This document shows, piece by piece, positions 226 to 64,000 of a stretch of 64,000 nt of DNA. The stretch's first letter is position 1. Each line of letters opens with the position of its first letter. The translations under genes were made by a program, and so were the position numbers. Origin of the DNA: Botryllus schlosseri. Taxonomy: Eukaryota. The notes below the pieces were generated by a model. That model had not been told where the DNA came from. It was given only the letters and a program-made list of their open reading frames with translations, and did not search any database. The stretch spans positions 5,458,001-5,522,000 of the forward strand of contig CM119373.1 in the NCBI GenBank assembly GCA_051294905.1, written 5' to 3'.

Positions 226-312
226 AGAAACCGATAGAAAGCAAAATAGTAGCTACTACAGTTGAACTTGAAGGGGTTTCGACAGTTACCACCGCAGGCG
301 ACAATACTACAA
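226..312 (+). CDS. Pentraxin gene A, Thr-rich linker exon (87 nt, phase 1-1; upstream exons unresolved or outside window)
   Basis: tttttAG acceptor and GTGAGT donor. Encodes KPIESKIVATTVELEGVSTVTTAGDNTT and splices in frame to the exon at 1564. Conserved at 49289-49375. Confidence 0.75.
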
Positions 313-1563
313 GTGAGTGCTGTCATATACCTATCGCCGTAGCCGGTGCGCAATAACGGAAATTACATATCATCTATCGACCACACCAGGTTGAATACCA
401 TACTATTGTTTATCATTCCTTTGGACCAGTAATTATTAACCTTTTTAGCGGTGGTATCCCTTGAACTGCCATGAAATTTTTCCCGTGCCCCCTATCCACG
501 ATTAAAAAGCAGTTTTTGAAGCAGCCCCAAAAACGTTGGTTTTTGGGCTCAGTATAGGGTTTCAACACGACTTCTGTGGATTTTTGGAACAGGAGACGTA
601 GCAGCGACTGAAGATATTAGTGTCGAAGGTTTCGCCAACGTGCTGTGTTTTAGGTTCCTAAAGTTTATCACTACCGATCTCTTTGGCAATGCGGTCTACG
701 TGGTCGCAGGTGCACCGAAACGTCATGGGTCTTGGTCTTTCTGGTGCGGAAGTTACGACCAGAGCCGAAATGCCGGAGTGGGACACTCCCGCTCCAGTAG
801 ATTTCCCACCCCTGGACTAAAGCACCCCAACGGCTTGATGTTTCCAGTCTCTTGTAATTACGATTAATGCTAGACTCGTTTCTTTAACTTAGGTTTTATT
901 TTTATTAATAGCCTACTCTTATGTTGTTGTAGGGGCTGGCATACCGAAATTTAAAGAAAAAATTCTCTTAAAAGAAAATCGCGCGAAGCGCGATGAAAAT
1001 ATCCGATTTGAAGAAATTCAATGAATAATATTCCACTTTTATTATGATTTGCAAAATAATTGATATCATAAAATAGCGTACGATTTCGCACTGCATCCCG
1101 TACCCATACCTTGGTGCCTCGCACCCCCATGAGGTCCATTGACTCCTGGTTGAGTACATCTGCGTTATGCCGTGTTTCAATGGGACAGGTATATGTAAGT
1201 TTAGTTGCCTCCCACAAGGAAAAGTTTTGAAATTTGAATTGAGTGCAATATTAATCCATTAAAGTACTCACAAAGGACATATTCGCCCTGCGGAATAAAT
1301 TGAAAGAATTGGTAAAGTATTAATTATCCATATTGAACGAGTTGTAGGTTGTCCAATTTCAATAATCGATGTACAACCATATTCTTCATCAACTGGCGTC
1401 GTAGTATGTTGAGTTGATACAGACACTTCCTTCAGCTGGCTTATACGAAATACGTGTTCGTCATTCAAATGTAATGATTAAATAATAATATACCAAACAC
1501 TTACTGAAATGCCGTTTTAAGTTTGAGCAAACATCATCATAAAACAAGGCATCTCCTTTTCAG

Positions 1564-2198
1564 CTTGCAACGAATCAGTCTTCACATTTTCCGAGGAGAA
1601 CCACCTTGATTACGTGTTGTACAATGGTACTTTACCTGAGATGTCATCACTCACAGTATGTGCCTGGGTTAAGCCTGACAAGGACAATGAATTTGTGAAA
1701 GGATCCCTCATCAGTTACTGCGAACCGCTCGGAAGCGATTGCAACACATTTTTTGTGCTGCTGCACTCAAATGGATCACGCCTCTTGCTCGTTTATGTCA
1801 ACTCACAATCCTATCGATTCTCGGGGGCTCCGTTCATAACGTCTCCTTCGCATTTTTGCGTGGTGGTGCACCCATACGAAGTGGGCTACTACATTAACGG
1901 TACTGAGCCAATGGATAGAATCGACCGTGAAAATTATATGAATATACCGACTGGCGGAGTGCTGATCTTAGGACAGGATCAAGACGGCAAAATAATCGGA
2001 AGGTCGCCAGGACAACCTAAAACTCCCCATCAGGGATTTCGAGGCGAAATTAAAGGTCTTCGTCTGTGGAAAAGAGCTTTGAGCACAGCTGAGATTGTGG
2101 ATTTGCACCGAGCTGGATGTAACTGTGCTACCTTCAACGAATCCAATTCGATCTTACATGGGCACGTGACTTCTCACTACGATATTTGCAAAGGTTGA
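1564..2198 (+). CDS. Pentraxin gene A, terminal exon encoding a pentraxin (LamG-like) domain
   Basis: ctccttttcAG acceptor. Motifs FTF..DYV, LTVCAWVK, HFCV, YYING, GGVLILGQDQD, FRGEI..LRLW.RALS..EI. Stop TGA 2196-2198. Confidence 0.92.
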
Positions 2199-3293
2199 GA
2201 CGATCGCAGTCGAGGTTGAGACGATTTGTTATTGACAGACAAAAGAGTATTGAACATTTTAAATTTTATTAGCGTCTAAGGTTTAATATTTACTGCATAT
2301 ATGCATAGGATTTGATGCGTGATTACATCTTCGGCTTTGCGAAGACACGTGACCAGGATTTAAAAAATCGCAGTAAATAATTTCGAATAAGTATGAGTAC
2401 CACCATACCAAGATAATTGATAACATTACCCACAGAAAGGATTTCGATGTCTTTCTAATCCAATAATTATACTTCCAATCGTTTGGATCCGTCCTATAAA
2501 TCGCTATAAGTCTCTTCAAGTCATTGGTTTAGTTTATGTTTCTTTACTTTAACCTGACGTTCTGAGTCGGTATTAAGTCTGTAACAGAGCTGAGCAATGT
2601 GCGGCCCGCGACGATATTTTGAGTGGCCTGCGAAAAGTTACTTTGCATGTTATCCCGTGGAATAATATCATTCGCTGTGTAAATATACTGGAAACTAGCT
2701 CATTATGAAGCCTGTTAATTTATGTGCCGCCATCGCATGGCCTGCGTACGTCATACCAGTAATTCAGATTCAGAATAAAGCCAATGTGCTGTAACAATTA
2801 AAGTCACAAAACGGCACTGTTTCCATTTAGTTTAGTTCAAACCTTATTTGTTGGCATTGCCACATTTACACCACTCTCTGACGTTCCAAATCCCTTATTC
2901 GAAAAACAGATCAATCAGTGCTCGTGATTAAACGGTTAACGGCCAGGCATGCATGTCAACAAGAATGGTGAAAATTCCAAGAACTTTCGGAGCACAAATA
3001 TTTGTTGACTTGAGTCAGGGTGAACCAGTCCTATAATTTGTGGCAAGCAGGTTTCCGTGGAGTAGATTTTGAGTCGGTAGAATGACAAAAAAGATGAAGA
3101 CAGACACTCGGCTAAGGGAAGGCGAATTTCGGAAACACTGCTAGTTTCCATCGACAACATAGCTATTTCAGCAAGCTGCACACTGCTCGGGAGGCAGCGA
3201 CCACGATAAGCTTTGTAGTATCCTGAATACATTTTTATGTCTTGATAAAAAAAAACGTGTTTGGAGGTTCAAGAAGAGTTTCAAATGTATCAT

Positions 3294-30854: not shown

Positions 30855-32342
30855 ATGTCGCTCAAGATTTGGATTATTTTGCTGTTCGGATTCACGATAT
30901 ATCTTCGTTCATCAGGTACGATGAATTTGGATTCCGATTTGAATCGGATTGTAGTTTTTCTTTTCCAGCGAAATTCTGCGTGAGAAGATACGTCAACGGT
31001 AAATGGATCTCGAAGGGAGATTGCGGGGTTGTTATACGAGTGGCTCAAGGTTACCGCTGAAGGTTATGTTATGTGTACTTTTCATGAAGGGCTCGGGAAG
31101 CATCTCAGAGATGCAGAAAAAAATTCAACTCAAAATCAACGATGAGAAGAAAAAGTGCATCGCGGATAAGGAATGGACTGTTGAGTAGCATTTCAACTCT
31201 TTTTGATGCGGCGCAATTTCGATTCAATTGAATTCTTGTGGTACTGAATGCTGTTGCAGGTCTTCCAGCGACGAAAATACGGAAACGTGAATTTCAATCG
31301 AGGTTGGGATGATTACGTGAACGGATTCGGGGATTGTGATGCAGATTTGTGGCTAGGTAGGAAGATTTTTTAATTTGATTCGTTCAATTTGTAGGTTTTC
31401 GTCGATGTTATCTTGTTGGTTATGACAGGGATGGTGCGAATGTAAGGTGCACGTTCGCGTTATGTGTGTGAACCTCTGGAATTTTGATGTTCGCGTTCAC
31501 AAACTAACCTTGGTTCTGCGCAGTGAACCTTTTGCATGTAATACAATTTCCATGTTATTATAACGTATTTCGTTGAAATTCCTCGCATGACATCTTGAAA
31601 GACAGTCAGCACTAAGCGAGCATGCACCTTGCCTATTTCAAAAATGATTTGCTAGAAAGTCCGCTCGGAATATTCGTTGGTGAATCAGTAGAGGATATCT
31701 GTTGGGATCTTTGTCCGCAATCAGTTACTACATCAACGAAATAAATACAGAGAATGCATCGATGTCTGATGTAAAAATCTATCAGACACACGGGATCTAT
31801 CAAAGCTTATTCTTGCAAAGCAGTTTGATTCAAAACCAACGTATCCCATAACTCCGTATCGTCTGTCTCCAGGGCTCGAGGAATTGCATAACAGGACAAA
31901 GGAAGGAGATATGGAGTTGGAAATCAACATGATAACCAAAGATGAAGCAATCCATTGGACGGCAAAATACAGGCAAGTCTGAAGCAACGGTCTCTGTGAA
32001 AACATGCAACCAACAATTCTGTTTCCCAGCTCCTTCCGCATCGGACCCGGATCCGACAAGTACAGACTGCACGTCTCCGGATACTCCGGGAATGGAACCG
32101 GTGGAGATGCTTTCTCATATCTCAACAATCAACAATTCACGACGAAAGACGCGGACCACGATAATGCGGCGTCAGGGAATTGCGCTTCCCTATTCGAAGG
32201 AGGCTGGTGGTTTTACGACTGCGCCGCCGGCAACCTGAACGGAAACTTCAACAAAACAGACCATAAGGGGATCTATTGGAATGGTTCCTCCAACCTCCTG
32301 CGATTCTCGGAGATGAAGATCCGGAAAAGAGCAAGAAATTGA
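30855..32342 (+). CDS. Secreted fibrinogen-related protein FReD1 (6 exons, 239 aa): 30855-30915, 30969-31027, 31090-31179, 31260-31356, 31873-31972, 32030-32342
   Basis: Signal peptide [21 protein letters not shown]. Motifs [63 protein letters not shown]. All phases join. Confidence 0.9.
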
Positions 32343-35134: not shown

Positions 35135-36927
35135 ATGTCGCTCAAGATTTGGATTATTTTGCTGTTCGGATTCACGATCTACCTTCGTTCATCAGGTACG
35201 ATGAATTTGGATTACGATTTGAATCGAATTCTATTTTCTCTTTTGCAGCGAAATCCTGCATGAGAAGATACGTCAACGGTAAATGGATCTCGAACGGAGA
35301 TTGCGGGGTTGTTATACGAGTAGTTTAAGGTTACCGCTGAAGGTTATGTTCTGTGTACTTTTCATGAAGGGCTCGGGAAGGACCTCGGAGATGCAGAAGG
35401 AAATTCAACTCAAAATCAAAAATGAGAAGAAGAACTGCATTTCGGGCGAGGACTGGACAGTAAGTAGCATTCCAAAATTTTAAATATTTCGGATACAGCG
35501 CAATTTTCATTGTTAATTTCTTGTGTTGTTGAATGCTGTTTCAGGTTTTCCAGCGCAGAATAAACGGAAACGTTGATTTCTTCAGAGGTTGGGATGATTA
35601 CGTGAAAGGATTCGGGGATTGTGATGGAGATTTGTGGCTCGGTGGGAAGATTTTTCAATTTGATTCGTTCAATTTGTAGGTTTTCGTCGATGTTAGCTTC
35701 TTGGTTATGTCTGACTATAGGGTTGGTGTGAATGTAAGGTGCACGTTCGCGTTATGCGTGTGAACCTCTGGAATTTTGATGTTCGCGTTCACAAACTCAC
35801 CTTGGTTCTGGACAGTGAACATTTTGCAAATAATACATTTTCATGTTATTATCACGTATTTGGTTAAAATTCTTCGGACGACATCATGAAAAGAAATTCA
35901 GCACTAAGTGAGCATGCAGCTTGCATATTTCAAAAATGATTTGCTAGAAAGTCCGCTCGGAATATCCATCATTTCGTTTGTGAGTCTGCAGAGAATCTCT
36001 AATGTGATCTTTGTCCGCAATCAGTTATTACATCAACGAAATAAAGATAGAGAATGCATCGATGCCTGATGTAAAAAACAATCAGACATACGGGATCTAC
36101 CTTGGTTTGATATCTTTATCGTATCACAAAACCAAATCCTTCCTATATTGGGGTGTTGGCTACTGCATACCTTGTTTTTGAGATAATATCTTGCGGAACC
36201 AATGTTTCACAATGTTAAGTTGCCGAAGGCTTAAGAAATCGTTGGCGAATTTGCGATTTTGAGGAATTGTGATGGCATATTTGATTGTTCCTATTGATAT
36301 AATCAGGTGATCTTTAAAATGTCGGCGTTTACTTCAGCATTGTGGCATTACACGCTCCAAGTGATCGCTAGTCACCGAAGCAGTTTGATTTAAAAGCAAC
36401 ACCCCACCTAACTTCACATCGCTTGAACCAACACCTTCAATAATTTTGTAACGTTTGTCTCCAGGGCTCGAGGAATTGCATGAAAGGACAAAGGACGGAG
36501 ACATGGAAATGGAAATCAACATGATCAAGGAAGTTGACGGAGCTCGCTGGGTGGCAAAATACAGGCGAGTTTGGGGCAACGGTCGTTGTGAAAACATGCA
36601 ACCAACGATTCCTTTTCCAGCTCCTTCCGCATCGGGCCCGCATCCGGCAACTATAGACTGCACGTATCCGGATACTCCGGGAATGCGACCCGCGATGCTT
36701 TCTCACCTCACAGAAATCAACAATTCACAACGAAAGATGCGGATCACGACGTTCATTCGTCATTAAATTGCGCTACTTACCGCGAAGGAGCCTGGTGGTT
36801 TGCCGGGTGCGGCAACAGCAACCTTAACGGGAACTTCCACAAAACAGGCATCAAGGGAATTCACTGGTACACTGGCTCCTACATCAACCTGCGATTCTCG
36901 GAGATGAAGTTCCGCAAAAGATCGTAA
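35135..36927 (+). CDS. Secreted fibrinogen-related protein FReD2 (6 exons, 237 aa): 35135-35195, 35249-35307, 35370-35459, 35545-35641, 36465-36564, 36621-36927
   Basis: Tandem paralog of FReD1 with identical sizes for exons 1-5 and an open frame to TAA at 36925-36927. Confidence 0.9.
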
Positions 36928-41444: not shown

Positions 41445-43259
41445 CGGCCAATACCGACATTTCACTGTAATTTCACAGAATTGTGAGGTACCCACCCTTT
41501 TGGGATTTCGTACGATTGGTACTGGTACTTGAAAATGCGATCAGAAACTGCTCAAAGTGAGGATTAGTATATTATGAATGCGAAACATTCGATATCACCA
41601 AATATAGTTATATAAAGTGAGTTTAACAAGACTTTTACTGGAAACTGAGCAGTCAACATAATGACTTGGACTCCGACTCGAGTCATAATACTATGACTCG
41701 GACTTGACCCTCTGTTCGATGACTTGTGGACTCGGACTTGACTCGATGGTTGGTTAAGCACCAGCGTCACGACATCAGTGGCAGTTGTTCAAATCCCGGT
41801 TCGGACCAACTTCTATGTGTTGGAGGTTTCTCTCGGCTCCTCATCGCCGACCTCACTGTAGTTGCAGTGCGTTGAAAAGTGCAGACTGATAGCGAGTCGT
41901 GCTACAACTCGGTAGCAAAGATCACGACGGGTACGCATGGATGCGAGAGAGACTGGAGTCTGAATCAGTGAAAGATTGAAGAAGTCCTCCCCAAGATGAC
42001 CTCGCACAAATACTTATGAGCATTACAAACAATCGTGTGGTGGTGTACATAGCCTGAAAAAGGCGAGGAGCCCACTGCAAAAAGTGAAATATTAAGAATA
42101 ATAAAACTATCTACATATAATATATATGTACGTATAGAAATTTCGTAGTTCGACTTATTTGTAAGCAAATTCCACGCAATAATGTACTGAGAAATTAAGA
42201 GAATTGCTAATAGTAATCTTGATCTTGTTATTTACCGTCCCAATGGGGGGGTCTCTGGTTCCAAAAATAACGCAAGTGGGAACGAAGCAAAAATGTTTGG
42301 CAACCACCGAGGTGACAAACCTAATTATTTTTTCTGCCAACAACGCATGTCTGATTACCCCGCAATTCTGGAATGGCGGCTCTCGAACAATAAATCTGAC
42401 CTACGGTTATCGATGAAAGACGATCTTGCGGAGATAATCGTATTTCTTATCGATGTATTTAAGATTAGGCTTGGCAATAACCAAAATTATTCTCATACAC
42501 TTGTGTCCGCTAATTCATATTTTGATTTAAACTTATTTCAATAGTAACACGAGTATGCATATACCTCATGAATATTAGCAACACATTCTAGTGATATTTA
42601 AAAAGAGCAATACTTCCAATATGTTTCCGATATAGAATACGGCAAAGGAATAATCACAACTGGCACGAATCAATAACTCAAATAAAAAGATTGATTAACA
42701 TAATAAGAATATTAACTACCCCTATATAATAATCATATTTGATGTCCTTTTGTGCCAATGCCGTAATGAACGGTGCGTGATATAGTCACGCGCCACAACT
42801 CGATGCGTCAAGCGAACACATTCCACATTGCGTTAGTCACCGTCACACCAAGTTTGCGATTTAGTTTTATATGTTAATCACCACCGATTCTAAAATGCCT
42901 CAAGTTGCAATAAGATCATGAATAATAAATAGCATCACCATAATCGGGGTGCAAAAACGATGACACGCGCTCCTAGTATAGTTCCAGCAACTGTTATAAG
43001 TTGGTTATAAATATATTACACTGTTTTATTGTTTGCGCCGGTACTTCTATGGGTCATATTTACCTATTTCGGGGCGCAAAATTCGAATCTGGCCTTAGTT
43101 TTGTTCTATCTCATCACGTTTTCAAGATAACATATGTGTCGAATATTATTACTACTTTTTCGGGGTAAAGTAGATTTGGCCTAATTGCAGTAGCTACTGA
43201 AGTAGTTATGTTTTCAAGCTACTTCTACTTCTACTTGAACAGTATTTCGGACGACCTAT

Positions 43260-43960: not shown

Positions 43961-45641
43961 TCGCACGCGGAAATGCATTGCGTTATGAATGATCTCGCGC
44001 ATCGCAGCCTATCCTAGTCATACCAATGTATTCAGTTCATGTCAACACCCAAATACAATTTAGATTGCAGCATAAGGAAATGCCATTTAAGCCATTGACT
44101 GACGACGGACCCTTTGAAGTCATGATACAAAGGTAATTCCGCGTAAATGTGTCGCTTATATTGAAAATCGTTCAAATCAAGCCGAAATACGACGCAGGAA
44201 GTCGGAGAAATGGCTGGGTATTTATTACTCTTTGCTGGATTGACCTGGATCTTCTTGCTTATAGACGTATGCTGCTCTTCTGGTATGTATTAACCGGCGA
44301 CCTGTATGATTATGGACAATATATATTAGTGATATTGCGAACCTCAGGAAATTTCCGATTCGTGCGAATGCGAACCTTTTTGAAAGGTTCTGTGTGAACT
44401 GTGAACGCGAACGTGAACCTTTGACGTCACGTGATGTCATACTGCTAATGCCATACCTAAATTTCAATGAAGTGATATATTAATGTACATTGTACACGAT
44501 ACCTACTGACGACTCAGGCCGCATTGTGCCACAATGCAGACGAGCATGCATGCATTTTAAACGTCACCAAATGCATCAACTGGAACAATCAAATGCTCTC
44601 CTAATCCCATAAAATCAATGTCACCGGCTCTTTGCCAACAACTTCGTAGAGGACTTGCAGGGCCAGACGGGACAATGCATTCGCCGTCTGGCTATTGACA
44701 CATTGATATTAGCAGAGTGTAAAAATCATTTCTATACTTGCTACCGATATTTCCCCATAAACAAGTTATACAGTAGACTACGCACCCCAATAGCACGGAT
44801 TTGGTTTTTACGATACAATAAACATATCGATCATAGATGGATGCCGTACGTCTGCTAAATTGTTTTTACATTAGACAACGATGCATTCTTTATACCAATT
44901 TCATTAATTGATTGATAAAGCATCAATTGATGACTACGTACATGTAGCGCATTTCGTTCTTGCTGTCGCGTGATTGCGGGCAAACCTCAAAACAAACGGA
45001 AAGCGGAATATTTCGAGCGGACTTTTGTAACAAAGTAGGAGGAAGCTTTGAGATTGGCAAGGCGCATGCTCGTTTAGTGTTCATTTTTTATGCTGCCAGC
45101 GTCATGCAGAGAGTGATACGAAGTTGAAATACGAAGAATTTCAACCAAAGATGTTATAATGACGTGGAAATCTGTAATATATGAAAAAGGTTCACAGTAC
45201 AGAACCCACCAAGGTTCGACTGTGAACATAAACCTCTAACTTAGTAAGGTTCACACAAAGAACGCGAACGTGAATCTCACGTGCACACCATCCCCAACAT
45301 TTAACTCTGACATTGTGCTCCGAACTTGCTTTATGCAATATTGAATCACGCAAGAATGTCAAAAATAAAATTTGAAGTTGCATTTCCATCTTGCTGAACG
45401 TAAATCAATGATGAATGCATATGCTTTGGGACTCGAATTAGACCACCACGTATCAATTTTGTTGTTGCGGTCCTATACTGTGATCAAATAGTTGCAGAGC
45501 TTTCATTCACTTTTTTAATTGGATTAAAATAGAATAATAATTTATTGATACAATATCGATTTATAATCTTGATGCGGCCATTTCTCAAGTCATGTACTTC
45601 CGCAAAGTCTCACTCAAGTCAACCTTTTAATATTTATTCAG

Positions 45642-45700
45642 ATGGCTTTTGCTCCAGAAGCTACATCAATGGACATTGGACCTCAGCAGGGAATTGTGGC
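45642..45700 (+). CDS. Orphan 59-nt exon (GFCSRSYINGHWTSAGNCG) homologous to FReD exon 2, parent gene uncertain
   Basis: tttattcAG acceptor and GTTAGT donor. Same length, phase (1-0) and Cys/Tyr/Asn-Gly/Trp pattern as 30969-31027. Confidence 0.7.
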
Positions 45701-47051
45701 GTTAGTATCCCCCATGTTTCATTTTTTTTTCATCAATAGTGCATAAAGTCACAATTTCTCATGAGCTTCAGACTACTCCATTTCCAGCACTACAATCTCG
45801 CATATTATACCATGATTTTGCAGTACATCATTGCATACCAATAAACTACGATCATGCGTGACTGACGCATTCTAAACGAACATTGCGTACCGGACACCAC
45901 CGTCCCATGGGCTGTATTTAGAGTCATCAGCACGACATCTGGTACCAATTTCGCTGTCACACTATTTTGAGTCGATGTAAAAAAGTAAATGCCCGATTTC
46001 GAATGCAGATATATCGAGGGGTAAGGAGGCGCAAACGTGGTAACGCAAACGTTTTTTTCGTGATGTATGAAATTGTGTACTTCTAAAGCTGTGCTCATCA
46101 GTATTAGTCCCTTCTTCCAGGACGGAACAGCGCTTGAAGATATTATGGCCAATTTGAAAACGCTATCGGAAGAAGAAATTTCTTCGACCACGCATTCAGG
46201 TAATTTCGCCATTTCTTGAGTTAACATATACCGAGGATACTAGGGAAGTATTTCCATCGGTGACATTGTACCACTTCCATCACGATTTGCCGCATACACG
46301 TGTGTCAAACGTGGATAAAGCTATTTCCGATCCCTTTTTTTGAAACTTACCAGTTTTAACTGATTTTCTCTTCCTTTATCTTTTGACATCTCCAAAGGAG
46401 TTGATACAGCGGACGAACAACCCAAGTAGCACCTTGTTTCTTGGACTTTGAATAACCAGAAAGTTATTGTTCAGAACGATGTACGGAACGATATGGCCCA
46501 TCGGACACGGTGAATATGGAAGAAGTTTCGACAAAAACCACTGTTGGTGGGATTACCACAGGCAAGTCGTAACAATAACCGCCTAAAAATAATTGTCTGG
46601 CCGTCTACACATAATCGAATTAGCAAGTGTTGGCGACAGCAATTTGAATTTACGAAAGTACTCCCAGATTGTTGAGATATACGATGACGCGATTTACGGT
46701 GACTTGATTTGTCTGTGGAAACATTGCAATATCCCGCCATACAAATGCATGACGAAGAAAAAAATGTGTGCCCATAAAATACAAATTTGGAATCGTGTGC
46801 GTCTCATAATGAAGGTTTTCGTGGTATATCCTACCTTTGAGCTTTTCTAATATAAATTTCAACCAAACCAAAATCTTTACGAGAGTTCAAGAAACAACAG
46901 CATGCAACAAAGTGATTAATAAAAACTCACGGATTCATCACCATTAAATATGTGCCCGTAATTGTCGAAGAGAACCCCGCCTGGGGTAGGGCGAACCAAC
47001 AAATTCTCTGGTCAGACTCCGATCCGACGACTACTTGGTAATGTACTTGAA

Positions 47052-47330
47052 GCTGGCAAAATAGCGTATGGGTATGATCCACAGCTTAAACAACGATGCG
47101 TTGCGGGTACGAGTGCAACCGAGGCCGACTCCAGAATTCTCACCTGTATAAGTGTTTAAGGTTTATCTCTAGGCTCTTCCTTGCCATCTAATCCGTGCAA
47201 GCAATGTCTTAACAACGCTTGGAAGTGGACCATGCTACAAGTCGGCAAATAAGGTATCATAATGAAGACAATCGGCCTGGTGTAAATAACAATTGTAGTC
47301 GACAAACACCATGAAAAACACAAACAAAGA
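47052..47330 (+). mobile_element. Degenerate full-length tRNA-SINE copy
   Basis: GGCAAAATAGCG head through GTAGTCGACAAACACCATGAAAAACACAAACAAA tail. Confidence 0.75.
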
Positions 47331-49288
47331 AACTTTAAATGACCGAAATCTGGACCGAATAACTGCGATAATAATCATCTACGATTTCAGGTTATATATT
47401 GTATATTGTAACAAAAGAAACATGACAATAAATACTCTCAGACTTTCATTCGCTGCTACTGCCGTTTGGTTTGGAGTTACAACAGCCATATGCTCATCAA
47501 CAGCCCCAATACCGATTCTGACCGTAAAAAGTGCGAATCAACCTTTGATATGACTCCGATCCGGCTCCGAGAAAAATACGACCGGGTAACCGGTCTGGCT
47601 CCGATACATATCCCGCTCTACCCCATCCATCAGCTCTGCCGGTGAATTTGATTACGTGGTTTGAGACAAAAAATATTTGATAGCAATATGTGCAACTACC
47701 AATATAATCATTCATCAATTTGAAAAGGTTTCTTGCGATTTCAGTGCCTATAATAAGGCAGCGGCATGTCAAAAGAAAACAGTGATGGTACAAAAATTAC
47801 AAGAGCTATCCGCTACGCGAAATCCTCTATAGTGGCAACTTAAGATGGATAATTTGCGCCCTGCTGGTCCATTACGTCTGTCCACTGGAACGCCGCCGTA
47901 AGCTATATATATAATCGAAATGCGGCCGTTAATAGCAGACAGATTGTACACTGTTCAAAAATAACTATTTTTCCCCGATTTCAGCCATTCACTGATTAAA
48001 TTGTCAGGTTACCTGAAAAACGCTGCACACCAAATTTGGTTCAATTTTAACAAGTAAGGACTCCGCAGATCCAATTAAAATTGTTAATTTCTTGGCAAAA
48101 CAAAAAAAATTCAAATTTTTCTGCCAACCCCATGAAATTGTTGAGCTGTCTTCAAAGACGATGCAGAACAAATTTGACTCAATTCCAACCAGTAGAAGCG
48201 GAGTTATTTTTCTTTGATAATCCTCGGATTATTCACCAATCAAGCGTCACCATCCTCGAATCAATAGTTAAAGTGAAACGTTCATGGAAATAAACCACAT
48301 GCTAAGTCCAAGTTGGTATAATTACTTCAAATAAGGGTTGGGCTAGATCTTTGAGTTTTTAATTTCATGTTTGCATTGCTTCAATCAATATTTAATACCA
48401 TCCTGTAAGTTGATTAATATTATCGGAGTTTTGCAGACCGGATCACGGCCATTTCTAGAATCCGGCCTAGGAGTCGGACCATTTAACTTTAAAACAGGAT
48501 GGGAGTAGGACTGGAGTATTTGTCGATCCGGCCCGCATTAGTCACGAGATAGATTTAGAGTGATATTTTATGATGTGGGGTAGTGGAAAAAGTAGGGTTA
48601 CCATATTTGGGGGTTCAAATTCCGAGCACCATATTAGCCCCCATTGGCGGATAACACATTGTCTGTCATAGGACGTCACACTATTAAAGCTCTTCCTATC
48701 GACCAGAGATCCACACTAGCATACATCCGGAGTTTTTCAACCCTTTATGGACGCGACTGCGTTTCTAATTTGTAAAATGATTGCATTTTGGCAATGGCGG
48801 TGGTTTGCATATTAAGTGTGTCGCGCGAAATCGCGTCGATCTAGCCCAAATCTATCCGAAAATGATTTTGTTTATGTTCATTTACGAGAAATATCCGAGC
48901 CTATATCAAGTCATCATATTTCTGGATATTTACGCATAGTTTAGAATTTTCTCCCGGACGCAGTTTGAACGGTGAAATTCTAAACATGTCTGGAAATTCC
49001 GGACGTATGGCAACCCGAGGCAAAAGCCGGGGTAAGGGTATGGGGTCGCCATTGCAGCATACCATTCCAGACTCTCAATTGGATAGCTATATTGAAGTTT
49101 GTATATTTCGCATTGAAGTTTCAAGTAATAATATTATAACAGTGAAATCGCGAACATTGCGGAAATCACAGCACAAGATCTATCGTATACGAGTTTATAT
49201 TGGACGATTTAAACATGATTGTGATATGTAATAATGGCGGTGTGTGACTATTTCTGATTGCAGTTAAGTTGTATTTTCCTGTTTTTAG

Positions 49289-52200
49289 AGAAACCGATAG
49301 AAAGCAAAATAGTAGCTACTACAGTTGAACTGGACGGGGTTTCGACAGTTACCACCGCAGGCGACAATACTACAAGTGAGTACGGTCATATACCTATCGC
49401 CGTAGCCGGTGCGTAATAACGGATATTACATATCATCTATCGACCACACCAGGTTGAATACCATACTATTGTTTATCATTCCTTTGGACCAGTAATTATT
49501 ACCCTTTTTAGCGGTGGTATCCCTTGAACTGCCATGAAATTTTTCCCGTACCCCCTATCCACGATTGAAAAGCAGTTTTTGAAGCAGCCCCGAAAACGTT
49601 GGTTTTTGGGCTCAGTATAGGGTTTCAACACGATTTCTGTGGATTTTTGGAACAAGAGACGTAGCAGCGACTGAAGATATTAATGTCGAAGGTATCGCCA
49701 ACGTGCTGTGTTTTAGGTTCCTAAAGTTTATCACAACCGATCTCTTTGGCAATGCGGTCTACGTGGTCGCAGGTGCACCGAAACGTCATGGGTCTTGATC
49801 TTTCTGGTGCGGAAGTTACGACCAGAGCCGAAATGCCGGAGTGTGACACTTCCGCACCAGTAGATTTCCCACCCCTGGACTAAAGCACCCCAACGGCTTG
49901 ATGTTTCCAGTCTCTTATAATTACGATTAATGCTAGACTCGTTTCTTTAACTTAGGTTTTATTTTTATTAATAGCCTACTCTTATGTTGTTGTAGGGGCT
50001 GGCATACCGAAATTTACAGAACAAATTATCTTGAAAGAAAATCGCGCGAAGCGCGATGAAAATATCCGATTTGAAGAAATTCAATGAATAATATTCCACT
50101 TTTATTATGATTTGCAAAATAATTGATATCATAAAATAGCGTACGATTTCACACTGCATCCCGTACCCATACCTTGGTGCCTCGCACCCCCATGAGCTCC
50201 ATTGACTCCTGGTTGAGAACATCTGCGTTATGCCATGTGTCAATGGGACAGGTATATGTAAGTTTAGTTGCCTCCCACAAGGAAAAGTTTTGAAATTTGA
50301 AGTGAGTGCAATATTAATCCATTAAAGTACTCACAAATGACATATTCGACCTGCGGAATAAATTGAAAGAATTGGTAAAGTATTAATTATCCATATTGAA
50401 CGAGTTGTAGGTTGTCCGATTTCAATAATCGATGTACAATTATAGTCCTCATGAACTGGCGTCATAGTATGTTGATACAGACGCTTCCTTCAAATGGCTC
50501 ATACGAAATACGTGTTCGTCATTCAAATGTAATGATTAAATAATAATATACAAAACACTTACTTAAATGCCGTTTTAAATTTGAGCAAACGTCATCATAA
50601 AACATGGCATCTCCTTTTCAGCTTGCAACGAATCAGTCTTCACATTTTCCGAGGAGAACCACCTTGATTACGTGTTGTACAATGGTACTTTACCTGAGAT
50701 GTCATCGCTCACAGTATGTGCCTGGGTTAAGCCTGACAAGGACAAAGAGTTTGTGAAAGGATCGCTCATCAGTTACTGCGAACGGCACGGAAGCGATTGC
50801 AACACATTTTTTGTGCTGCTGCACTCAAATCAGTGGCGGCTCGTGACAATATCGGGTGGTGGGGCAAGGGCTGCGAGCGACTTTTATCAACATGACGTCA
50901 CAATGGCGTTCTCCAACGTAAAAAAGTAACTTTATGATGGTCACATGAATTTCCCGAAAACAGTGATTTTAACGTAGGTGCCGCGAGAGGTTTGCCGGTG
51001 AGCCGTGACTTGAAGTGTGGTAACAAATGTTTTATTCATTTATTTTTAATCAAAGGATTATTTTACAAAATGTACGTGAACTAAGAATCGTCCCTATGCC
51101 ACGAATCAAGTATCAGGTCATCCTTAGTAGCATGCGTTTTGATTTCATGGTAGAGTTATAGATTACGCAAATCGATAGACCCTAAAATCCGACCGTCACC
51201 CCAAATTCGAAATCCGGATCCAGTCCGGCCAGGTAAAAAAACATTGAAATCCTGCTCCGGCTCCTTAACCGGACTGTGGCCATCTCTGGTTACGACCAGG
51301 TGATAATAGGCAACCAAAGCGGAGGCACCCGGCGTACGATTGGATCAATAGACTGGACAACTTCTAGACCTCTCATTTTCGCTCTAAAGGCAACTGCGTA
51401 AACTACGTACGGAATAAAGATTCAATACGATTCATGTTCGCACTTGACTTGACCTGACTAATTCCAATGACTAGAACTCGAGAGATTGCGTAAGCCTAAC
51501 TGGAAAGGTCAACGAGTTCGGACACATACGCAATTGTTATCTCATAGATTGGGCCTGTCATATTGAATCCAGAACATCAATTTGAATGGTCTTTGAAGAA
51601 CTAAGGACAGCAGCCTCGGAACTTCGGTCTCGGAACAACGTAGGACATTTTGGCCTTGAAACTGGAGACTGTGACACAACACATACGGCTTACTGTCTAT
51701 AAGTCTGCTGCGAAATCGCCGTTGGAAAATATATTAATATATAAATACATGAATAAAAGCCGTAACTTAGTATACTGTTACAAGAAATCATCGAGAAGTA
51801 GCATACGCAATCTCATAACCCATTCCGGTATGGTACACTGTCAAAATCAATGCAAACAGACGAACACCGAACTTTGAGTAAAATAGATCGAGGAATAGGC
51901 TGATCGAATGATCAGCTGTTAGCCGACATCGAAAATGAAATAGCTATCGCAATTGACAGGGGATTGTAAGCAAATGGTTTGAAGGCCACAATTTCACAGT
52001 GAAATGGACATTGGCGAACATAAAATTATGTGAATATTTGAATGCAAACCGAGAATCTTGGTCAGCTGTTTCATGCGATCATCGAGATATACCATTGGAA
52101 ATATCATCACCGATCTCGTTATGGAACGCAGACTATAGATTAGCACAGACCGACACCGGCTATTGCGTGAGATCCGCAATGACGTAGGTAGGCTAAGTAT

Positions 52201-53633
52201 CAGATCAGCGCGCATCTCTACCATACTCGACCTCGAAAACGAAATAACTGCCTCAATCATTGAGTGTCAACTTTAAGACTTGGCACCGCGTTCGATACTA
52301 AAATCAAGACATACCGTGTGAAAGCTCATGACAGATCTAGGTATGGAACATCGTTAAAATCAATAGAGACCAATAACGGCTTTTGCGTAAATTTGTTGGC
52401 GATAAATGAAGAGTCAGCTCTTACTCGACTTTGGAAACGAAATTACCACCCACATAGTTCAGTGACAAACTTAAAACTTGTTACAGCGGTCGATACTAAC
52501 ACTTACCGTGCCAAATATCATGACCGATCTCGGTATAGAACATCGTCAAAATCATTGGAGACCAATACCGGCTTTTGAGTAAAATCTGTTTGCTGTACTA
52601 TGTACATGATAGATCAGCACACACTGAACTTCCGAAACGGAATTACTACCATTATCTTTAAGTAGTAAGCCTGAAACTTGGAGCAGTGTTAAATGCTACC
52701 TTCACGACATATCATACCAAGTTTCAAGAATTATCATGGTGCGAAACACCGTCAAAATCGACCTATACCAGCAAAGGTCGACTCAACGCATATTACGGTA
52801 ACCGAGTTCAGATATAGATACGATTGTTACATCACACCTCAAGGGCGAGTAGGCATATTTGCCCCGGTTGCTCGGCCATTTTACGAATAGGAGAGAGGAA
52901 ATCACCGTTTCTTTATTGTGCGCGGCTTTGAGAGAATAGATAGTGAAAGCTTGTTATGAGCGCTACCGGGGCAAGCCCCGGCTAGGCATTCACAAAGCGA
53001 AAACACAGAAGAGAATTCGATTTTCGCAGAGGCTTCGCTATGTATGGGCGTTTGCAAGCGAAAGCACATGAAGAACGCAGGTTTCGCTGTGATCTCGGTA
53101 TATATTGATTGCTGTGCGTCTATAAATGGTCGAATTGTTATTGAACAGAATTTTAGGTGGGGCAATGCCCCAGTTGCCCTATAGGACGAGCCGCCACTGA
53201 CTCAAATGGATCACGCCTCTTGCTCGTTTATGTCAACTCACAATCCTATCGGTTCTCGGGGGCTCCGTTCATAACGACTCCTTCGCTTTTGTGCGTGGTG
53301 GTGCACCCATACGAAGTGGGCTACTACATTAACGGTACTGAGCCAATGGATAGAATCGACCGTGAAAACTATACGAACATACCGACTGGCGGAGTGCTGA
53401 TCTTAGGACAGGATCAAGACGGCAAAATAATCGGAAGGTCGCCAGGACAACCTGAAACTCCCCATCAGGGATTTCGAGGCGAAATTAAAGGACTTCGTCT
53501 GTGGAAAAGAGCTTTGAGCACAGCTGAGATTGTGAATTTGCACCGAGCTGGATGTAACTGTGCTACCTTCAACGAATCAAATTCGATCTTACATGGGCAC
53601 GTGACTTCTCACTACGATATTTGCAAAGGTTGA
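49289..53633 (+). pseudogene. Pentraxin A' (duplicate of A): linker exon 49289-49375, pentraxin exon 50622-53633 split by a hAT insertion
   Basis: Near-identical to 226-2198. The frame runs into the insertion and stops at 50929. Confidence 0.9.
50831..53199. mobile_element. Non-autonomous hAT (2369 bp) inserted in a coding exon
   Basis: Perfect TIR CAGTGGCGGCTCGT and perfect 8-bp TSD ACTCAAAT. Empty site in gene A at 1765-1772. Confidence 0.95.
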
Positions 53634-62009: not shown

Positions 62010-62856
62010 ATGACAGCTACTGAAGCTGATCTGAAAGATGCCACAAGGAAGCTTACCTCCAAGATTGAGGCGATGCGAGTCTCGTGTCATGAAAAAAGCG
62101 TTGTCAATGAAGCAGTCAGCCAAGTACTGGCACAGCTATTGAAAGATAGTGATTTTAAAGACCTAATTGCCAAATCCACACAGATGGATACGAAAATTGA
62201 TTATATTATTGACCAAAACAAGAAAAGAGACAAATAACTTCAAGAAATCAAGGCATCTCAAGACTTCATCAGTTCCGCCTTCGAAGCCCAAAAACAACAA
62301 TTCAAGGACCTCGAAGCACAGTATTGCATTCCTCCAGATGGAAAATAAGAAATTGCAACAAGCTATCTCAAATAAAGAAAGACAAATTGACGACCTCGAC
62401 CAAATCCAACGGAGCGATACCCTGGAACTCCATGGCGTACCTGTTAAAGAAAATGAAAGATTTGACGAAGAAGTCACTAAAATTGGTGCAGCTCTTGGTA
62501 TCTCACTAACATCAGATGACTTGAACTCTGTCTTCAGGCTTCGATCTCAAAATGCAGCTATGAGTGATCGTCCACCTTTGATAATTGCAACATTCCACCT
62601 CTTAAAGACCAGGGGACTTTTTCTCGAGAAGCGTGGAGATCTTCGGAAAGTCACGAAACATCCTGAATACAAAAATATATACATCAATGAAAACCTGACA
62701 AAATTCCGCAGGATCCTATATGCAAAAGCACGACAAGCTGCTAAAACGTTAACGTACGACTTCTGCTGGACTGCAAATGGGAAAGTATTTATGAAGCGAG
62801 ACAATAATACACGCACAATCCTCATTGATTCTCTAGAAAAGCTGAACCAGCTGTGA
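62010..62856 (+). pseudogene. LINE (CR1/L2 group) ORF1, disabled
   Basis: Coiled coil, LELHGVP, IYINENLT..R..L..AR..FCWTANGKVF. In-frame TAA at 62235-62237 and a frameshift near 62320. Confidence 0.85.
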
Positions 62857-62906
62857 AAGGCCTGGTGATCATCTCGACTATGTAAGTCACTTTGTCATTG
62901 CTCAAA

Positions 62907-64000
62907 ATGGCTTCCAGCGAAGACCATACAAATGCATATGTGAAAAATTCTGAGCTGCTTTACAACAATATTGAGATTTGCGAAAGTGTTACTTTGGATA
63001 ATTTATCCTACAACTTATCTACCGCTTTTCAAGACTTTGTTATCTGCCACTTCAATATTAGATCTTGGCAAAAACACTATTTATCCCTTCATCAAATTAT
63101 TAGAGACATGAATATTGCTCCCAGTGTAATAGCTTTGTCTGAAACTGCCCTGCGTGACGACCCCTTATTGAATATCAATTTACATGGTTATACGTTCATC
63201 CTCACCACCACAGATACCAAATGTGGCGGAGTTGGTATGTATATGAGAGATGACATTCCCTATTCCCTTGTTGATAAGTATTGCCTGAATCTGGATACAA
63301 TTGAAGAAAAATGGGTAGAGGTTCAAGTTGGCATAGCCAGTGTACCTTCCATTATTGTCGGTGTTATCTACAGACACCCCGTGCCAAACACCTCTGACTT
63401 CAGCTCTGAGCTATCCCACGCCATTGTTGAAATATCTAACTCGAAGTTACCATTTTTCGTGGTCGGAGACATCAATATTGACATGGCATCCAAGAAAAGC
63501 AAAAATACATCAAGTCATCTTGAGAATATCACGGCTACTGGTGCAACACAAATCATTACTAATCCCACCAGATACTGTGACACCACTGCAACCATTATTG
63601 CCCATTGCTACACTAATATAGCACAAGGTTCAATAAAACCATATGTCCTGATTGATGACACTACTGATCATTACCCAATAATAGTTCAATTCAGGCGCCG
63701 TATGCATAAAAACCTTTGGCTTATACGACACTCTCCAGGAATCTGACTCCAGAAAGCATGACTAATATCTACATTTCTACAATCACGTCTGGGACTATTT
63801 TGAAAAGTATGAACCAATGCCTCTGACTGAATTGAATTTTAATCAGCGATTCAACATGTTTATCAATTCAATATTAGAAATAGTTAATGTATACTCACCA
63901 TTGACAGGTTTATCTCGCAAACAGCGTAAATTGAAACGTAAGCCATGGTTAATTCCATCTATCCTCCAATCCATTCGTATAAAGAATAAGATGTATCGTA
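62907..64000 (+). mobile_element. LINE ORF2 apurinic-endonuclease domain, frameshifted near 63720, runs off the window
   Basis: HFNIRS, IALSET, GGVGMY, GVIYRHP, VGDINID, PTR, TDHYPI, later KPWL..I. Confidence 0.92.

Follow-up and report, generated by a model that had tools for sequence, protein, structure and literature searches.

The exon at positions 45642–45700 of the 64-kb stretch of Botryllus schlosseri DNA analyzed here (the window) appears to encode the first half of an extracellular module of about 40 residues that would lie directly after the signal peptide. This first half is predicted to fold as a β-hairpin that turns at Asn-Gly, pairs Tyr with Trp across its strands, and contains two invariant cysteines, and the second half, supplied by the next exon, would be an amphipathic helix of four to five turns. 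Together, the two exons seem to constitute a phase 1-1 cassette that has been copied onto genes for FReD, pentraxin, C-type lectin, VWA, and EGF-array proteins. The hairpin-helix module is apparently an unnamed, lineage-expanded N-terminal module present on at least five domain classes. If so, it represents an apparently undescribed domain family, and its short tag groups some 80–95 ascidian genes that are otherwise unrelated.

A Short Exon Shared by FReD and Pentraxin Genes

The window carries four pentraxin genes and two FReD genes (Table 1). An earlier note on this DNA had proposed that one short exon is common to both FReD genes and to the pentraxin side of the window, and our comparison bears this out, as length, phase, splice sites, and motif agree in all three copies (consensus C-x3-Y-x-N-G-x-W-x3-G-x-C). 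The hairpin exons of FReD1 and FReD2 are identical at 56 of 59 nucleotides, and the exon on the pentraxin side matches them at 35 and 34 of 59 nucleotides and at 11 and 10 of 19 residues, respectively. A motif-plus-splice-site pattern, built from the same three copies that it then recovers, gives three matches in the window versus none in 300 mononucleotide shuffles.

Table 1. Coordinates of the hairpin exons and the genes that carry them in the window
Feature	Position	Strand	Description
Pentraxin A, last two exons	226..2198	+	Linker 226–312, pentraxin 1564–2198
FReD1	30855..32342	+	Six exons, open frame of 239 aa, Pfam Fibrinogen_C E 2e-19
FReD1 signal exon	30855..30915	+	
FReD1 hairpin exon	30969..31027	+	59 nt, phase 1-0, AG acceptor, GT donor
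FReD1 helix exon	31090..31179	+	Phase 0-0
FReD1 FReD-domain exons	31260..31356, 31873..31972, 32030..32342	+	
FReD2	35135..36927	+	Six exons, open frame of 237 aa
FReD2 signal exon	35135..35195	+	
FReD2 hairpin exon	35249..35307	+	59 nt, phase 1-0, AG acceptor, GT donor
FReD2 helix exon	35370..35459	+	
FReD2 FReD-domain exons	35545..35641, 36465..36564, 36621..36927	+	
Pentraxin A' signal-peptide exon	44210..44282	+	ATG, 24 codons, hydrophobic, ends in phase 1
Hairpin exon	45642..45700	+	59 nt, phase 1-0, AG acceptor, GT donor
Amphipathic-helix exon	46121..46199	+	79 nt, phase 0-1, second half of the module
Pentraxin A' linker exon	49289..49375	+	Ser/Thr-rich, 87 nt, phase 1-1
Pentraxin A' domain exon, 5' part	50622..50830	+	
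Insertion in pentraxin A' exon	50831..53199		2,369 bp, 8-bp target-site duplication, terminal inverted repeats
Pentraxin A' domain exon, 3' part	53200..53633	+	

As had been claimed, no FReD exon lies 3' of the hairpin exon at 45642–45700 in a tblastn search of positions 43001–64000 (best E values 0.11 and 0.55), and the idea that this copy is the relic of a third FReD gene was rejected at the level of gene structure. Instead, the exon belongs to the gene we call pentraxin A'. The earlier assignment to a pentraxin gene was correct, but position 49289 is not the start of the next exon, since the helix exon at 46121–46199 intervenes; both this exon and the signal-peptide exon had been overlooked. 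A direct splice from 45700 to 49289 would be out of frame (phase 0 versus phase 1), so the 79-nucleotide exon is needed to reach the linker in frame. The resulting chain of signal, hairpin, helix, linker, and pentraxin exons is open as far as the 2,369-bp insertion, which by class name we take to be a hAT-like DNA transposon. Because this insertion splits its pentraxin exon, the A' copy is probably disabled.

Two intact paralogues, pentraxins A (locus L011, contig C3 near 5.452–5.460 Mb) and A'' (locus L012, outside the window, contig C3 near 5.560–5.565 Mb), repeat this five-exon layout, including a homologous 73-nucleotide signal exon, with canonical splice sites and open frames of 310 aa. 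The earlier note had suggested looking for the hairpin exon in gene A, and it is present upstream of the window along with the signal and helix exons. The A' and A genes share about 95% DNA identity, with A' interrupted. Pentraxin A matches the Pfam families Pentaxin (E 1.2e-11) and Laminin_G_3 (E 4e-13), and the gene downstream of the hairpin exon has the Pentaxin domain that marks the pentraxin family. Matches to the pentraxin A exon number 98 genome-wide, and large pentraxin clusters are found on the contig that holds the window (C3, ~4.07–5.85 Mb) and on contig C5 (~8.4–8.7 Mb).

No hairpin exon was found in the other two pentraxin genes of the window, B (8323–7099, minus strand) and C (~20895–20215, minus strand), and no signal exon was located for either. 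Their leader is of another kind, composed of a single-Cys exon (47 nucleotides in B), a 10-nucleotide microexon, and a helix/Thr-rich exon, and the B chain is in phase. Two features of the FReD genes can also be recorded. The open frames of FReD1 and FReD2 require a short GC-AG intron at an equivalent site (31973–32029 and 36565–36620), and most of the N-terminal FReD subdomain is missing from both (31090–31356 and 35370–35641), such that the helix exon leads straight into the FReD core.

Copy Number and Constraint

We searched the 495.5-Mb, 219-contig assembly with three patterns. A codon pattern produced 103 matches versus one in a reversed control, and two other patterns produced 73 versus 3 and 118 versus 26. 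Among the 100 codon-pattern matches listed, 80 are exon-like by eye, 19 represent one repeat-like sequence, and one contains a stop. From the three patterns, we estimate that the genome holds roughly 80–95 copies of the hairpin exon, distributed over most large contigs.

Reading 39 loci yielded 35 exons, and the four non-exon loci (L024, L026, L049, and L061) were excluded before constraint figures were calculated. Two matches to the repeat sequence and L026 lack splice sites and were rejected, and L061 is likewise false. All 35 copies are free of stops, and all retain the first cysteine even though the search pattern did not fix that residue. An AG acceptor is present in 34 of 35 copies (the exception being L056), as is a GT donor (the exception being L048). 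Seven positions are invariant in every copy, six of them fixed by the search pattern and one free, and the exon length is fixed. Across these copies, identity at unconstrained codon positions is 0.58/0.65/0.47, with third positions most variable, versus 0.27–0.30 in the ungapped intron flanks, which are near background. Downstream of the hairpin copy at L056, on the minus strand of that locus, are a 599-aa envelope-like ORF (2–1798), for which no confident Pfam match was found, and an ISXO2-like transposase ORF (1877–3049).

Partner Domains and the Two-Exon Unit

The partners of the 35 copies were read as pentraxin (12), FReD (11), C-type lectin (5), EGF array (2), and VWA (1), with none seen for 4. 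Three of the pentraxin partners are assigned by a full exon chain and nine by proximity alone, with a same-strand pentraxin 4.6–10.6 kb downstream in five cases and at 14–25 kb in four. Two of the C-type lectin partners score above the Pfam cut-off (L053 and L054), two fall below it (L058 and L060), and one was recognized by eye without a Pfam match (L055). Pfam supports the VWA partner of L057 (E 5e-8) and the EGF-array partner of L033/L051 (E 3e-10), for which there is a near-identical paralogue (L034). Given these pentraxin, C-type lectin, VWA, and EGF partners, a motif confined to FReD proteins was rejected at the level of gene structure. When coordinates were paired by eye for all 79 exon-like copies listed, a FReD exon was found within 8 kb of at least 36, a lower bound given that 150 of 340 FReD candidates were scored. 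Another match (C5:10696042) precedes a pentraxin exon by about 1 kb.

In each partner class (FReD, pentraxin, lectin, EGF, and VWA), the hairpin exon is followed by a related exon for an amphipathic helix, although this second exon was not found at every locus. This exon is 67–79 nucleotides long with phase 0-1 in pentraxins A', A, and A'', in lectins L053 and L058, in L033 (EGF), and in L057 (VWA), and it measures 79 nucleotides where it precedes the EGF array and the VWA exon. Across the six non-FReD genes that were checked, the two exons make up a phase 1-1 cassette; because the hairpin exon is phase 1-0 and the helix exon phase 0-1, the pair is bounded by phase-1 introns. Phase-1 introns on both sides are the usual form of shuffled extracellular modules. 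This class 1-1 arrangement occurs in pentraxin, lectin, VWA, and EGF genes, with FReD1 and FReD2 as the exception, where the helix exon is phase 0-0. Thus, the earlier proposal of a small module attached to unrelated recognition domains is supported, with a wider range of partners than was claimed, but the unit is not the 59-nucleotide exon alone. Only 19 plus about 22–30 residues separate the signal peptide from the linker or head.

In a tree of hairpin exons, those linked to FReDs group together (91/96) and the others interleave. The tree is weak, being built on only 59 columns with stars at 4 of its 31 forks, and we therefore claim no order of shuffling events. A helix-trimmed realignment was worse and was dropped.

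The module could be a passenger of a reused 5' cassette that comprises promoter, signal exon, hairpin, and helix, in which case it would serve as a folded cap or spacer that has no shared partner. The signal exon does travel along, being found as a 73-nucleotide exon about 1.4 kb upstream in A, A', and A'' and as a candidate in L031. Furthermore, many FReD and pentraxin genes lack the hairpin exon, as do pentraxins B and C with their single-Cys leader, and the hairpin matches that pair with a FReD exon (at least 36) compare with at least 150 FReD exon matches. However, the seven invariant positions (six of them pattern-fixed), the fixed exon length, and the persistence of the module in another ascidian, described below, argue that it is more than a spacer, and we judge the passenger explanation to be quite unlikely.

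A Putative Relative in Styela clava

Outside the genome, a predicted protein of Styela clava (XP_039256391.1, annotated as fibrinogen C domain-containing protein 1-like) carries the hairpin motif without gaps at the position that directly follows the signal peptide; both cysteines align, and a helix and then a FReD come next. This motif is the best of 14,073 19-mers taken from 41 FReD proteins (z 7.6), one of which carries the motif. As in FReD1 and FReD2, a signal peptide is followed by a hairpin with identical Cys, Asn-Gly, and Gly spacing, a helix, and a FReD. In contrast to those proteins, Trp/Phe replace Tyr/Trp and the N-terminal FReD subdomain is kept; the module is unannotated. The Styela copy scores 10 bits on the profile versus 53–70 bits for held-out members. 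Because this score is far below those of members and matches that of bacterial FN3 strands without cysteines, homology rests on position plus pattern, and on these grounds the Styela FReD appears to carry a diverged copy of the module. Within the Botryllus genome, a relaxed pattern identified more diverged candidate hairpin exons at C2:13257238, C2:18178642, C7:24728086, C7:24899984, and C5:21270623, one of which is like the Styela variant.

A full profile search of 1.84 billion representatives, with a profile that would miss divergence at the Styela level, returned 10 matches and no other named protein with the module. Two of the 10 are unnamed ORFs from Logan that read through the hairpin exon. 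The rest were rejected, seven being FN3-repeat proteins and one another repeat protein; these proteins match through several short stretches, and the two sequences that were read lack the cysteines. A word-indexed profile search of 7,999 candidates found only a Cys-less repeat protein. Pfam gave no match for two 20-residue exons or for the N terminus of XP_039256391.1, and the best E value in a PDB sequence search was 0.13. An Atlas match to DUF4238 at 0.87 is within the chance range, and a metagenome pattern scan gave 27 loci that all score ≤5.4 bits and were attributed to chance. No published description of a hairpin-helix module was found in a literature search that had most subscription papers outside its reach.

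Predicted Structure

An AlphaFold2 model of the Styela protein (47 rows) places strands at residues 25–30 and 33–38 around the Asn-Gly turn and a helix at residues 45–63, with pLDDT values of 76–87 over residues 21–60. By this model, the hairpin exon is predicted to encode a β-hairpin with an Asn-Gly turn. The two hairpin cysteines probably form one internal disulfide, and we infer that the hairpin packs on the helix. The same strand-turn-strand arrangement occurs in Cys-free form in bacterial FN3 domains. Folding from a single sequence was poor (pLDDT 37), and a fold search with the whole model, in which the module (residues 21–67) was barely covered, gave nothing at Z ≥5. Prediction of a complex of three module copies, run with the alignment unused, scored 0.02 and counts neither for nor against assembly.

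Arg/Lys, Tyr, and Trp are conserved on the hairpin, which is consistent with a localization or sorting tag that directs proteins to secretory granules or, through a basic-aromatic face, anchors them to polysaccharides of the tunic or matrix; such a tag may even be a removable pro-piece. The occurrence of VWA and EGF arrays among the partners besides lectins also fits this possibility, as do the basic clusters that the Styela protein, FReD1, L053, and L055 have after the helix. However, pentraxins A and A' have no basic cluster after the helix. Moreover, Tyr and Trp around an Asn-Gly turn are a common hairpin-stabilizing pair and need not be a binding face. We consider a sorting function unlikely.

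Comparison with Known Systems and Possible Roles

Like the pentraxin A-type genes, long pentraxins, such as PTX3 and the neuronal pentraxins, have an unrelated N-terminal region with a helix and cysteines ahead of the C-terminal pentraxin domain. We know of no case in which these N-terminal domains are shared with FReDs or lectins. To our knowledge, they are also much longer than the N-terminal part of the pentraxin A-type genes.

Defense collagens (ficolins, collectins including MBL, and C1q) likewise place one N-terminal unit on FReD, C-type lectin, and other heads, as described in the accessible part of one report (PMC11312191). Corresponding heads are present here, with Fibrinogen_C in FReD1 and Lectin_C above cut-off in L053 and L054. 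However, the N-terminal unit is a hairpin plus helix of about 40 residues and not Gly-X-Y collagen, and it also occurs on pentraxins, VWA, and EGF arrays. No Gly-X-Y run was found between signal peptide and head in FReD1, FReD2, pentraxins A and A', or L053. The gastropod VIgLs (FREP, CREP, and GREP) are also expanded, secreted proteins in which heads of the FReD, C-type lectin, or galectin type share one kind of N-terminal domain, but in the accessible text on these proteins the unit is one or two IgSF domains (PMC5433772), whereas the Botryllus mini-module is near-invariant at its core. No N-terminal IgSF domain was found, and the 19 plus about 22–30 residues after the signal peptide are modeled as hairpin plus helix. 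With neither collagen nor IgSF in its sequence, the module belongs to neither the defense collagens nor the VIgLs.

The closest functional parallel is GBL of Halocynthia roretzi, a collagen-free C-type lectin whose N terminus has a coiled-coil region and which associates with MASPs and activates C3, according to the accessible part of its description (PMC8605247). Lectin L053, with its leader, predicted helix (modeled in the homologous module), and EPN-type C-type lectin domain, resembles GBL in layout and as a collagen-free secreted ascidian lectin, but the accessible portions of the GBL literature mention no module that other domain types have in common with it (PMC8605247, PMC5465252). GBL was compared by description and not by sequence.

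Because the module is of fixed length, constrained, and located at the mature N terminus of unrelated heads, it is best read as a shared handle. In line with a possibility raised in the earlier note, we tentatively favor a docking or assembly tag that, by analogy, would work like the collagen stalk of ficolins, collectins, and C1q. The heads would bind different ligands, and the tag would give them all one shared binding partner, which might be a protease of the MASP type, a receptor on phagocytes, or further chains bearing the tag. Some observations do not fit easily with this proposal. FReDs form trimers and pentraxins form pentamers, and such differing head symmetries are a poor fit to a stalk of fixed symmetry. 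In addition, it is not clear that the EGF-array and VWA partners act in immunity. If the tag does bind a common partner, the sister group of vertebrates would have arrived independently at a design in which one stalk serves many heads. With a 40-residue bait, it would become testable how ascidian lectins, FReDs, and pentraxins that lack collagen are assembled and how they recruit effectors.

A bolder version of the docking-tag proposal, which seems to us doubtful, is that the module is a universal adaptor tag of styelid ascidians that connects about 90 secreted proteins, drawn from five or more domain classes, to one effector (MASP/C3 or a phagocyte receptor). If true, these animals would have evolved on their own, and without collagen, an equivalent of the ficolin/collectin/C1q stalk or of a constant region like that of antibodies, which would account for MASP recruitment by collagen-less ascidian lectins such as GBL.

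Splicing and RNA Evidence

It could be argued that, outside FReD genes, splicing does not join the hairpin exon to the domain that follows, and that the exon's neighborhood reflects clustered duplication and relic fragments. In the RNA runs X1, X2, X8, and X12, which were swamped by repeats, no GT-AG splice junction appears among the 15 joints listed of about 1,360, and the absence of an observed junction is compatible with this argument. So are the transposon that disrupts A', the non-AG acceptor of L056 and the non-GT donor of L048, and the lack of a partner for 4 of 35 copies. Nevertheless, we regard unspliced relics as very improbable. Pentraxins A and A'' and lectin L053 each have a phase-consistent, stop-free chain with canonical splice sites, the L053 chain being open and in phase for 204 aa from the hairpin exon onward, and the hairpin-helix-VWA chain of L057 is also in phase. 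Moreover, the helix exon is kept beside the hairpin across partner types. From these phases and open frames, we infer that the non-FReD copies are spliced as parts of the two-exon module.

Depth is zero over positions 45504–46837, which include the A' hairpin and helix exons, in runs X8 and X12 (6% and 13% read, respectively), and no RNA run is listed as containing the pentraxin exon. For FReD2, the same two runs have 3 and 5 reads at position 35255 in the hairpin exon and 12 and 4 reads at position 35383 in the helix exon, and these reads possibly derive from paralogues because of 88% likeness. A short repeat that is tRNA/SINE-like by eye is highly transcribed at approximately 41749–41860 of the window, with a depth of several hundred in both runs. 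Toward the end of the window (62167–63746, plus strand), there are two adjoining ORFs that by eye resemble a LINE ORF1 and the start of an endonuclease.
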